A stretch of 64,000 nucleotides of DNA from Escherichia phage ECML-134: sequence record JX128259. One strand, given 5' to 3'. How positions within the stretch are numbered: the first letter of the stretch is position 1; every line of letters begins with the position of its first letter. A model generated the notes under the pieces. It searched no databases, was not told where the DNA came from, and saw only the letters and a program-made list of their open reading frames with translations. Position numbers and translations under genes: made by a program. Below are positions 14,890-63,379 of this stretch, in pieces.

Positions 14890-15099
14890 TTAAATTACAT
14901 GACTATTTATAATAAATTCTCGCGGAACGTTAAAATACCCAATTTTAGTTAATATAACAACATCACCATTAATAATTACCGGAGAATAATCTTCTGGAGC
15001 ATTAAATTTCCAATGGGCTCTAATATTATATCCATCAGAACCAAATGCTCGACTAGCCGGTCTCCCGGCTTTTTGCCATGCATAAAAATCAAATTTCAT
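14890..15099 (-). CDS. small hypothetical protein
   Basis: 69-aa ORF between 56 and soc. Confidence 0.55.
   Translation of the reverse strand: MKFDFYAWQKAGRPASRAFGSDGYNIRAHWKFNAPEDYSPVIINGDVVILTKIGYFNVPREFIINSHVI
14904..14911 (-). promoter_or_regulatory. late promoter core TATAAATA upstream of soc
   Basis: plus-strand tatttata, about 30 nt upstream of soc ATG; AAGGAG Shine-Dalgarno follows. Confidence 0.55.
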
Positions 15100-15290
15100 T
15101 TTGAATGCTCTATAATTAATTTTAAAGCTTCTTCACTGACAAAAATTTCGTCAGGACCTTCTATAATTTCAACCATACGAAGTTGATTAGTTAAGAGCTC
15201 ACACACGAGCTCTTTGTTATAATCTTTAAATAGCTGGTCAATACGTTTCTTATGGGCTTTCTTGAGCTGACGCTTATTTAAACGAGCCAT
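15096..15290 (-). CDS. small hypothetical protein
   Basis: 64-aa ORF; 4 nt overlap with downstream ORF. Confidence 0.55.
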   Translation of the reverse strand: MARLNKRQLKKAHKKRIDQLFKDYNKELVCELLTNQLRMVEIIEGPDEIFVSEEALKLIIEHSK

Positions 15291-15808
15291 TAATAACCTC
15301 GGTCTTGACGAGCGAAGTTTTCAGCATTTTTCAGGTAATAAAGTTTAAAGATTTCTTCAGCTGACATTCCAAGAGCAATAAATTTATTCATGAAAAAGTG
15401 AAATTGGTCAATCAGTTCAAATTTAATTTCAAGCTGATCTTCAGGAGATAAATCTTGAATTTTCTTGGATTGCATTTCAGAATAACGTTTCTTCCAAGGT
15501 TTCCATACAGCAGAAGCTTCTTTTTCACCATTACTCATACCACCAAGAGAAGTATATAGCTCGCGAGTTTCATCTGCGATATAATCGTCTTGGTTTCGCA
15601 ACCAAGCAAGAACTTCTCCTGCAGTTTCAAGTGAATCAGGATGACGATTTGTTTCTGGTTTATCATTAGCCAAACGAATCTGTAAATGCCGCTGCATGTC
15701 AAGCATAACCTGCAGTGGGTCAATATTGTGCATAATATTCTCAGCATATGCACGATTTGCTTTATCAACACCTTCGATCAAATGAGCGCATTCATTAAAG
15801 TAAGCCAT
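15290..15808 (-). CDS. 56: dCTP pyrophosphatase
   Basis: 172-aa ORF, T4 gp56 length; MazG-like; AAGGA Shine-Dalgarno. Confidence 0.85.
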   Translation of the reverse strand: MAYFNECAHLIEGVDKANRAYAENIMHNIDPLQVMLDMQRHLQIRLANDKPETNRHPDSLETAGEVLAWLRNQDDYIADETRELYTSLGGMSNGEKEASAVWKPWKKRYSEMQSKKIQDLSPEDQLEIKFELIDQFHFFMNKFIALGMSAEEIFKLYYLKNAENFARQDRGY

Positions 15809-15881
15809 TATTTTTTTCCTTTCAATTCATGGGTTAGTAGATTAATTATACAATAAATATATAAAGCAATAAGGAGGACAT

Positions 15882-16082
15882 ATGGTACAAAAATTAATGG
15901 CACTTGTTAATGCCATAAAAGGTAATAAAAAACGTATAGCTTTTACTATTTCTGCTATGGTAGGAATTTTACTCTGGAACTTTATTTTATCACCAATTGC
16001 AATTGCGCATGGTGTTAATATTCCAGTAGTTACTCTTGATGCATTCGTAGATCTAGCATTTGCTTTAGTTGGGTTAATTTAA
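15882..16082 (+). CDS. small hydrophobic protein on plus strand
   Basis: 66-aa ORF, two hydrophobic segments; aaggagg 5 nt before ATG; only plus-strand candidate gene in the window; convergent with gene 61. Confidence 0.45.
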   Translation: MVQKLMALVNAIKGNKKRIAFTISAMVGILLWNFILSPIAIAHGVNIPVVTLDAFVDLAFALVGLI

Positions 16083-17107
16083 ATCTTGGCATATTTAGAT
16101 AGCCGCATTTTAGCCATCAACCCCTGGGCAATATTATTTTTCATATATTCCATAATTTGTTCAGGGGTTGCACCTTCCTTTCTAATCATATCATTAACAT
16201 CTTTTGATTTCCAGGGAGATTTATCCCAAAACATAACCCTTTCTCCTGCATCAACTAATTTAGTCATTCGCTTAATAGTGTCAGGATGACGAGGTTCATT
16301 ATCTAAAACCCACACTCGTCTATCTTTAAATGGAACAATTTCTAGGTCTAATTGACCACCCGTAATAGCTATACCATTTTCAATAAAAAGTGAATCTATA
16401 GGTCCTTCTAGAACATATACATCACCATCTTTAACTCGTTCGACTCCATAGATTTTTGTTGCCTCAGGATAAGCTTTGATGGTGATATATTTTTGAGGAG
16501 CATCTTTCTTTAATGCACGTCCTTGAAAAGACTCAGCTTTTCCATTAGCATTATAAATTGGAATAACAAGACGAGGCTCAGGTATTTCCTTTTTATATGT
16601 TCCTGGTGCTATGCTATTAACTAATTTAGGCCATTCAGTTGTAAACCAAAGATATTTCCATTTATCCTTTGGAATACAACGAGCTTTTACGTATTTTATA
16701 ATTGGATGGTCTTCCGTCAGTTTATCTAATCTAACACATGACGGAAGAGATTTAATTATTTTCTTCTCAGGTTGTTTAGGAAGTTCTTTAGGTTTTTCTA
16801 CTGGACGACTTTTACCTTTTTCTTTTCTTATTTCAAAGATATACTCACGATATAAATCAGGTTCAAACTCCTTTAAATATATTCCGATTGGTGCATGATA
16901 GTTACAGTTATAACAATGAATATTTCCTTCATTATTATCACCATAATACCATCCACGGGCTTTATTTTGGTCGGTTTTTGAATCTCCACACACTGGGCAT
17001 CTAAACCGCAATTTAAAAGTTGAACTATTATTTACTTGTGTGAATTTAGGTAAATGAGCTAATGCACGGTATGCAAACTCATTATCAATCCAAGGTATTG
17101 ATGACAT
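16079..17107 (-). CDS. 61: DNA primase
   Basis: 342-aa ORF, T4 gp61 length; zinc-ribbon CPVCGDS...CYNC. Confidence 0.9.
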   Translation of the reverse strand: MSSIPWIDNEFAYRALAHLPKFTQVNNSSTFKLRFRCPVCGDSKTDQNKARGWYYGDNNEGNIHCYNCNYHAPIGIYLKEFEPDLYREYIFEIRKEKGKSRPVEKPKELPKQPEKKIIKSLPSCVRLDKLTEDHPIIKYVKARCIPKDKWKYLWFTTEWPKLVNSIAPGTYKKEIPEPRLVIPIYNANGKAESFQGRALKKDAPQKYITIKAYPEATKIYGVERVKDGDVYVLEGPIDSLFIENGIAITGGQLDLEIVPFKDRRVWVLDNEPRHPDTIKRMTKLVDAGERVMFWDKSPWKSKDVNDMIRKEGATPEQIMEYMKNNIAQGLMAKMRLSKYAKI

Positions 17108-17111
17108 TTTT

Positions 17112-17273
17112 ACTCTTCTTTTTCTTTAGATTCCTCTTTTTTCTTTTTAGGAATCTGTTCAGGACCTTTATTTACTACAGCGCCTGATGTTGTTCCAGTA
17201 GAGATATTTTCAGGATTACCACCTGAATCTCCAGCGACCATATCTTCTTTAATAAATTCTTTATATGTTTTCA
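17112..17273 (-). CDS. small protein with internal-protein-like N-terminus
   Basis: 54-aa ORF translated by hand: MKTYKEFIKEDMVAGDSGGNPENISTGTTSGAVVNKGPEQIPKKKKEESKEKEE; stop 1 nt before gene 61 ATG. Confidence 0.5.
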
Positions 17274-17275
17274 TA

Positions 17276-17902
17276 TTAACCTCTATTCATAAAAGCATTA
17301 AAAATTTGGTCATCAATAGAAACATTTACTTTAGACTGTTTTTCAGATGGCAATTCATATCCACATATTACAATTTTATGATCAATATCAAAATACACAG
17401 AAGCAATATGATTAATGATATTTTCAGTGAAGTCTAAATCAACATCAATATCTTTTTGACCAAAGCCCAAAGGATAAATAATGCGAGTAATTCGATTATC
17501 TTTAACAAAGATTCCACCGACATACTCTGTGCTGCGTTTAAAGTCTACACGCCGATGAAATGAAAAATATTCAGGCTCTTTATGAGCTCGGCTCATAGGG
17601 CACAACGAATAACTAGAATAAGAGATGTCAAATCCTACACCTTCAATATGAACTAAATTGTCATGATTAAACCAATTATAATCATATGCCAAGTCCATTA
17701 GATTGTCATATGTGAAAGGCACCGGATTAACATCATTGGTCACAAGCATATAATTAGCAACTGCTATAATTTCATTATTTTTAACGAATACAAACCGTGA
17801 TTGATGCGAATGACCTGGACCTGCGTTTTCACGATTAATGATATAACACTGGGCACCTTTATATTTGTACGTGTCTTTACACTTGTGCATTTGATAAAGC
17901 AT
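17276..17902 (-). CDS. hypothetical protein
   Basis: 208-aa ORF between primase and sp. Confidence 0.65.
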   Translation of the reverse strand: MLYQMHKCKDTYKYKGAQCYIINRENAGPGHSHQSRFVFVKNNEIIAVANYMLVTNDVNPVPFTYDNLMDLAYDYNWFNHDNLVHIEGVGFDISYSSYSLCPMSRAHKEPEYFSFHRRVDFKRSTEYVGGIFVKDNRITRIIYPLGFGQKDIDVDLDFTENIINHIASVYFDIDHKIVICGYELPSEKQSKVNVSIDDQIFNAFMNRG

Positions 17903-18195
17903 TATTCACCTACTACTTCAGCGATGATATTTTTATTATTGAAGTTTTTATCGCAATACAGAACATAATTATACTGCATTACACCACCAGACTTAAGTTG
18001 TTTTTGCACTTCAGCTTTCATTTCAGGACGATCACGCTCAACTATATTCATAATATCTGCTTCAATTTGAGTTTCAACCTCAGTCTGATCCGCAGTCATA
18101 GACCATTCGCATAAATCTTTATCATAACCTGCCATAGCAGGCTGAGCAGCACAAGAAGCTAAAGCAAAAACTGTAGCAAAGATAAATTTTTTCAT
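17902..18195 (-). CDS. sp: spackle periplasmic protein
   Basis: 97-aa ORF with cleavable signal peptide MKKFIFATVFALASCAAQPAMA; size and position match T4 sp. Confidence 0.7.
   Translation of the reverse strand: MKKFIFATVFALASCAAQPAMAGYDKDLCEWSMTADQTEVETQIEADIMNIVERDRPEMKAEVQKQLKSGGVMQYNYVLYCDKNFNNKNIIAEVVGE

Positions 18196-62848: not shown

Positions 62849-63379
<531 letters not shown>

Follow-up and report, generated by a model that had tools for sequence, protein, structure and literature searches.

A conserved gene for a predicted small membrane protein converges on the primase gene of T4-like phages and is preceded by a late-promoter-like motif

The window, by which we mean the whole 64,000-nucleotide stretch of DNA that was analysed, belongs to a T4-type phage (Tequatrovirus), of whose genome it forms the left end, and the 1501 bases around the ORF described here were 99.4% identical to those of Escherichia phage vB_EcoM_SCS4 (ON506924) at equal coordinates. 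This ORF lies on the plus strand between genes 56 and 61 (Table 1). Its stop codon (16080–16082) and that of the primase gene (16079–16081, other strand) share a single palindrome, TTAA (16079–16082), and the two genes are therefore convergent with a 3-nt overlap. The initial annotation had proposed a plus-strand gene for a small hydrophobic protein converging on primase and had described it as the only plus-strand candidate in the window. The first proposal was borne out by ORF calls and by the comparative coding signal given below. On the second, the annotation of ON506924, in which this ORF is the sole plus-strand CDS across positions 1–64000, agreed with our own scan of the window, in which any Shine-Dalgarno (SD)-like 4-mer accompanied four of the plus-strand ATG ORFs with a length of 40 aa or more, and this ORF alone reached 60 aa. 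The aaggagg SD sequence reported ahead of the ATG was likewise present, with a spacer of 4 nt rather than the 5 nt first given, and comparison of sequences revealed GGAG or GGAGG upstream of the ORF in all orthologues. In the SCS4 record the primase is annotated from an internal start (16079–16993); the full 342-aa ORF extends to 17107, like that of T4.

Table 1. Coordinates of genes and sequence elements at the locus, numbered from the first base of the window.
Feature	Position	Strand	Remarks
Gene 56 (dCTPase), divergent upstream neighbour	15290–15808	−	
Putative middle-promoter-like element of gene 56	15845–15869	−	MotA-box-like TTGCTTTA 15869→15862, 11-nt spacer, TATAAT 15850→15845
Late-promoter-like motif AATAAATA	15852–15859	+	T4 gp55 consensus TATAAATA with A at −13
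Shine-Dalgarno AAGGAGG	15871–15877	+	Sequence reading; followed by 4-nt spacer ACAT before ATG
Predicted small membrane protein CDS, 66 aa	15882–16082	+	ATG start, TAA stop; phrog_2024 member
Intrinsic-terminator-like hairpin and U-tract, downstream of gene 61	15887–15916 (hairpin 15897–15916)	−	Within ORF codons 6–12
Predicted transmembrane helix, codons 19–42	15936–16007	+	Carries W32, N33, P38 and A40; G44 and P48 just after
Gene 61 (DNA primase), convergent neighbour	16079–17107	−	Stop overlaps ORF stop

In T4 (NC_000866, AF158101), dam (16846–17625) sits between genes 56 and 61. The initial annotation had tentatively placed dam in this interval of T4 and noted its absence here; the T4 records and a tblastn search of the window agreed on both points, as no Dam homologue was found in the window (best E = 0.3). 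T4 has both dam and the small ORF, the latter at 17738–17938 of NC_000866, inside the 309-bp "gap" between dam and gene 61. The protein encoded by the T4 ORF was 95–97% identical to that of the window, and the T4 copy had its own AAGGAGG. This orthologue is unannotated in the T4 reference records AF158101 and NC_000866, and also in some other T4 and T2 records, and newer phage records mostly name the ORF "hypothetical protein". At the matching position in T2 (LC348380, 16642–16839) only the primase gene is annotated, and the orthologue in Edwardsiella phage PEi20 (L021 1420–1605) carries no annotation. RB69ORF029w was handled as an ORF without a T4 counterpart (Nolan et al. 2006); our comparison identified RB69ORF029w, RB32ORF030w and the unannotated T4 ORF as orthologues of the window ORF. 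Public records list the product as a hypothetical protein (phrog_2024), but the gene has no characterised role and the T4 reference annotation lacks it. Both segF and dam, which are mobile or optional T4 genes of this area, were missing from the window (14890–15290 and 15809–15881), and the segF position was occupied by two small ORFs (14890–15099 and 15096–15290) resembling the soc.1 and soc.2 ORFs of the Shf125875 record. With respect to the dam-less layout, each of the best 40 records listed aligned as a single piece, but pieces up to 1250 bp apart were joined, and these alignments hence give no frequency for it.

A tblastn search detected the ORF in 691 phage records, with coverage of at least 80% in 685 of them; amino-acid identity was at least 80% in 501 records and below 60% in the other 190. 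To find more distant orthologues, a weaker tblastn search was run and the neighbourhoods of its matches were inspected. In total, a plus-strand ORF converging on primase was found at the same position in eight further genera (nine including that of the window), seven of which are Mosigvirus, Gaprivervirus, Dhakavirus, Gelderlandvirus, Kanagawavirus, Jiaodavirus and Marfavirus. Orthologues of ~61–69 aa were represented by Dhakavirus QL01, Gelderlandvirus STP4-a, Kanagawavirus PEi20, Jiaodavirus PKO111 and Marfavirus PWKp18. Tight stop-to-stop linkage with gene 61 was retained in most genera; in Jiaodavirus and at the first Gaprivervirus copy the ORF is not adjacent to primase. The initial annotation had named non-conservation in relatives as an observation that would count against the gene; instead, the ORF was kept at the same position in nine genera. 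The small ORF was absent from genomes in which a same-strand gene directly follows primase (Biquartavirus, Bragavirus, Pseudotevenvirus, an Acinetobacter phage and Klebsiella phage Roth23), and no small convergent ORF was present in Krischvirus, where an unannotated same-strand ORF occupies the gap after primase. In Krischvirus KFS-EC this unannotated ORF encodes 187 aa on the primase strand, between primase and dUTPase (L027 1944–2507).

The pattern of substitution was that of a protein-coding sequence. Comparisons among Tequatrovirus, Mosigvirus (RB69ORF029w type) and Gaprivervirus gave an amino-acid identity of ~50% and dN/dS of 0.15–0.26, with synonymous sites near saturation (pS 0.65–0.73; pN 0.31–0.36). 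Differences were enriched at third codon positions (for example, 32/12/39 for positions one, two and three), and among nine Tequatrovirus copies 12 codons varied only synonymously, cf. 8 that altered the amino acid. The frame was open in nine genera despite only 18–54% amino-acid identity to the window protein. In the family alignment W32, N33, P38, G44, P48 and G64 were invariant, and A40 nearly so, giving an invariant signature W-N-x4-P-x5-G-x3-P. The window protein matched the phrog_2024 HMM with E = 6.2e-31 (residues 2–66 against profile positions 1–65 of 65), and all ten of the divergent orthologues that were compared with this profile also matched it. Taken together, the comparative data indicate that the ORF is a genuine protein-coding gene conserved across enterobacterial T4-like phages and, as judged from the aligned sequences, that purifying selection has kept its frame open in hundreds of genomes.

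Gaprivervirus genomes carried two divergent copies in tandem, type A followed by type B, with type B adjoining primase (L013 2495–2901, L014, L006 1995–2399 and L005). One of these copies was of the Tequatrovirus type and the other of the Dhakavirus/Marfavirus type. The type-B copy was intact in L013 and L014; in VR20 it had a stop at codon 2 and a 2-nt deletion, and in TH40 it was largely deleted.

Upstream of the ORF, the plus strand carries a candidate late promoter. In T4, late promoters carry the box TATAAATA at −13 to −6, of which A(−13) is the commonest natural variant (9 of 50 T4 sites; PMC2988020), and the first T of the box is weakly conserved among related phages (PMC1524935). In the window, AATAAATA was located 22 nt from the ATG and was followed directly by TATAAAG, with a predicted start site at ~15865. 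A TATAAATA-type box, AT-rich sequence downstream of it and no −35 element, which are the features of late promoters, were all found upstream of the ORF. The core ATAAATA occurred in only nine copies on both strands of the window, compared to 41.4 ± 7.0 expected from dinucleotide-preserving shuffles (a ~4.5-fold depletion), and was the rarest among the 21 permutations of A5T2. Each of the five minus-strand copies preceded a start codon by 13–30 nt, namely that of soc, gene 49, rI.-1/rI or lysozyme e (two copies), all of them genes with established late promoters, and the gene 49 copy likewise reads AATAAATA. Among the four plus-strand copies, only the one described here was followed by an SD sequence and an ORF. 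The other three (17474, 60540 and 63765) were antisense inside minus-strand genes without an ORF behind them, and are possible antisense late starts or chance occurrences. Since such ORF-less copies exist, the ATAAATA motif alone is not proof of a promoter.

Comparison between genera provided further information on this motif. The sequence xATAAATA was present 15–23 nt upstream of the ATG in eight of the nine genera. The Marfavirus motif was a perfect TATAAATA, that of Gelderlandvirus had two mismatches, and in Tequatrovirus, Mosigvirus and Gaprivervirus the motif was never a perfect TATAAATA, its first base being A, G or C. In those T4-type genomes that carry a dam insertion, the stretch resembling the window began at the late motif. 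The conserved motif supports plus-strand transcription of the ORF, the lack of which the initial annotation had listed as a finding that would count against the gene.

On the opposite strand, TTGCTTTA was read as the MotA-box-like part of a gene 56 promoter by comparison with the T4 MotA-box consensus. The plus-strand late motif falls inside the 11-nt spacer of this middle-promoter-like element, and the two predicted promoters are therefore divergent and overlapping. This overlap lends itself to an alternative in which the gene is real but has early, middle or low constitutive expression without a gp55 late promoter, ATAAATA being incidental to an AT-rich divergent promoter region. However, analogous middle-promoter elements were found at other relative positions in Mosigvirus and Gaprivervirus, such that the distance from motif to ATG was stable between genera while the position of the motif relative to the minus-strand promoter elements shifted. 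Non-late expression would also accommodate the deviation from consensus at −13 in most lineages and the three motif copies in the window that lack an ORF, but the strong depletion of the motif elsewhere in the window speaks against an incidental occurrence, and no sigma-70-like plus-strand promoter was found upstream of the ORF. An HMM-based list of 31 RB69 late promoters included none before RB69ORF029w (Nolan et al. 2006), which favours the alternative, whereas T4 early and middle transcripts are all counter-clockwise (PMC2988020) and the ORF is oriented clockwise, which does not. Overall, we consider non-late expression quite unlikely, and late, gp55-dependent transcription is probably the best reading of the expression signal of the ORF, judging from the motifs and their arrangement.

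The 66-residue product is strongly hydrophobic (GRAVY 1.29). An AlphaFold2 model built from an 11-sequence alignment (mean pLDDT 81) contained helices at residues 2–12, 16–42 and 52–63. The N-terminus (residues 2–12) was amphipathic with a net charge of +5, and the C-terminal tail had a net charge of −2, no basic residues and a hydrophobic end, ...FVDLAFALVGLI (...ALVGLI). Of the two hydrophobic segments described in the initial annotation, both could be located (approximately residues 19–42 and 47–66), but the second contains two Asp residues and gave a poor score for membrane spanning. In the family as a whole, simple insertion-energy sums were +5 to +12 for the second stretch, cf. −2.4 to +3.6 for the first. 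One transmembrane segment (residues 21–41) was predicted for RB69ORF029w by TMHMM-type analysis (Nolan 2006 supplement). The charge distribution and the insertion-energy sums credibly favour a single span at residues ~19–42, and it is unlikely that the second hydrophobic stretch crosses the membrane. Given a single span and this distribution of charge (positive-inside rule), the protein probably adopts an N-in/C-out topology, with a predicted periplasmic tail of ~24 residues.

Exhaustive and profile searches covering billions of proteins returned only proteins of 56–73 aa, on T4-like contigs; matches to long proteins by phmmer (P0032 and similar) were translated tandem repeats and were dismissed as spurious. 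Sequence searches of Pfam, NCBIfam and the PDB gave no meaningful match, and a Foldseek search of BFVD returned family members and one likely distant relative (Enterobacter phage CIP9), the remainder being noise. A six-frame profile search of the window recovered the ORF alone and hence no paralogue. Among the homologues, the functional labels were 'Holin' (phage OE5505, in UniRef and BFVD) and 'DNA packaging ATPase', the latter an evident mislabel of one homologue, and all others were 'hypothetical' or 'uncharacterized'. Literature searches, which included CRISPRi-ART, HIDEN-SEQ, a T4 omics study and a T4 dRNA-seq/NAD-cap study, found no paper on the ORF.

The label on the OE5505 homologue raises the question of whether the product is a holin, a pinholin or another hole-forming lysis protein. 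Class II holins/pinholins of the phage 21 S21 type are proteins of ~65–70 aa with two hydrophobic stretches, and the ORF product, for which late expression is predicted, is alike in being small and hydrophobic and in having two such stretches. A small protein with a predicted transmembrane domain, as in holins, is at hand, but the second hydrophobic stretch was poor as a membrane span throughout the family and the charged hydrophilic C-terminal tail of holins is missing, as the product ends in hydrophobic residues. The gene also lies ~47 kb from the lysozyme gene e (62849–63343), with dCTPase and primase genes rather than a lysis cassette as its neighbours, no holin-family match was obtained in Pfam, NCBIfam or the PDB, and T4-type phages already possess the T holin. 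The 'Holin' label looks automatic when set against the labels of the other homologues, and we regard a hole-forming role as improbable.

The minus-strand elements that overlap the ORF bear on whether its RNA, rather than its protein, might be the main product. The hairpin downstream of gene 61 had a predicted stability of −8.9 kcal/mol (z = −2.7) and matches the position of a terminator annotated in fPS-65. It was confined to Tequatrovirus and not conserved in Mosigvirus or Gaprivervirus; as a cause of ORF conservation it was rejected, because the protein is conserved far more widely than the hairpin. Transcripts of gene 61 are predicted to continue, antisense to the small ORF, as far as this hairpin, and their 3′ UTR would be complementary to the small-gene mRNA over ~180 nt. 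Such complementarity could, we infer, sharpen the timing of the small gene or aid primase shut-off.

A late plus-strand transcript that shuts off primase by acting antisense to gene 61 or its 3′ UTR, with the peptide being secondary, would suit the convergent and overlapping transcription units, the ~180 nt over which gene 61 transcripts are expected to be antisense to the ORF, and the stop-to-stop linkage kept in most genera, and no plus-strand terminator was found after the ORF that would end such a transcript. It is also in keeping with the observation that at certain T4 sites each strand is transcribed, but not at the same time (PMC2988020). An RNA-only role, however, leaves purifying selection on amino acids in the presence of saturated synonymous change inexplicable, as well as sitting poorly with the retention of a strong SD everywhere, with the Jiaodavirus ORF and first Gaprivervirus copy that are not next to primase, and with a terminator hairpin that is specific to Tequatrovirus. 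We give little credence to RNA as the main product; RNA and protein roles could coexist. The remaining alternative, that the ORF is a chance, untranslated frame located between genes 61 and 56 amid 3′ UTR, terminator and promoter sequences, draws on its shortness, its AT-richness, its lack of annotation in the T4 reference and the functional minus-strand elements that overlap it, but is very improbable and effectively refuted by the comparative sequence data (the dN/dS values, a frame intact in nine genera at low amino-acid identity, the invariant residue signature, intact paralogous copies and a conserved SD).

We consider it moderately likely that this is a genuine, late, gp55-transcribed gene whose single-span inner-membrane product modulates an envelope process through helix–helix contact. 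Under this preferred reading, gp55–RNA polymerase would transcribe the ORF clockwise, and only late in infection, from AATAAATA, giving a short leader (~17 nt) that contains a strong ribosome-binding site. The protein of 66 residues would then enter the cytoplasmic membrane with its basic amphipathic N-terminus on the cytoplasmic side, cross the membrane once by the helix at ~19–42, and place a short acidic amphipathic tail (~45–66) at the periplasmic face. The helix bearing the W-N-x4-P-x5-G-x3-P signature may contact a specific membrane partner, of either phage or host origin. A specific helix–helix contact is proposed in preference to generic membrane damage because invariant polar and helix-shaping residues lie in, and just after, the span, and a partner-specific contact of this kind leads us to suggest that the small product modulates an envelope process late in infection. 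The foremost candidates for this process would be the timing or inhibition of lysis, and protection in superinfection or of the envelope. Helix-mediated membrane interaction late in infection is our preferred mechanism; the assignment to any particular process is made with low confidence.

Several known systems offer points of comparison. The ORF differs in nothing from phrog_2024, which includes RB69ORF029w, RB32ORF030w and hundreds of 'hypothetical protein' entries of the same length, strand, 56–61 position and W-N...P...G...P signature, and is thus a member of that family, which has no assigned function. The T4 holin T and antiholin RI resemble the predicted ORF product in that each is a small or bitopic protein of the inner membrane, with an N-terminus that lies in the cytoplasm or forms a SAR-type anchor and a C-terminal part in the periplasm, and both are expressed late from TATAAATA-type promoters, one of which, that of rI.-1/rI, is in the window. 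In contrast to T and RI, to which a six-frame profile search of the window revealed no sequence similarity, the predicted periplasmic part of the ORF product (~24 residues) cannot form a globular domain, and the gene is unlinked to t, rI and e. The T4 proteins Imm and Sp are small membrane or periplasmic superinfection-exclusion proteins that act on the envelope and are encoded by early, counter-clockwise genes. The ORF had no sequence similarity to either in the window profile search, and sp is ~2 kb away (17902–18195). Type I toxin-like peptides are small, hydrophobic and controlled by antisense RNA that overlaps their mRNA. In this regard, antisense overlap of the ORF by the gene 61 3′ UTR is predicted as far as the hairpin, which is found in Tequatrovirus only.

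A more elaborate and more speculative version is that this overlooked late gene of T4 and its near relatives encodes a single-pass membrane protein whose W-N...P...G...P helix binds a specific inner-membrane protein of phage or host and thereby adjusts an envelope decision late in infection, such as the timing of lysis, its inhibition or exclusion, with its expression time-gated by convergent antisense with the primase 3′ UTR. We offer this version tentatively, and it is doubtful that all of it would hold.

T4 is the reference organism of its group, yet a gene that is present in at least nine genera and has a late-type promoter motif is missing from its reference annotation. Libraries and databases designed from annotated CDSs miss it; the CRISPRi-ART library, for example, took only annotated CDSs as targets. 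Over the first 64 kb of the genome the ORF appears to be the sole clockwise gene, and it can be deleted or tagged cheaply as a clearly defined target. The depletion of ATAAATA outside genuine late-gene leaders is also of practical use as a filter when late promoters are called in genomes of the T4 type. What has been found is a solid orphan gene in a model phage, and not a new kind of system; if the envelope-tuning reading is true, lysis and envelope control in T4, which rank among the most thoroughly studied of any phage, would gain a further component.
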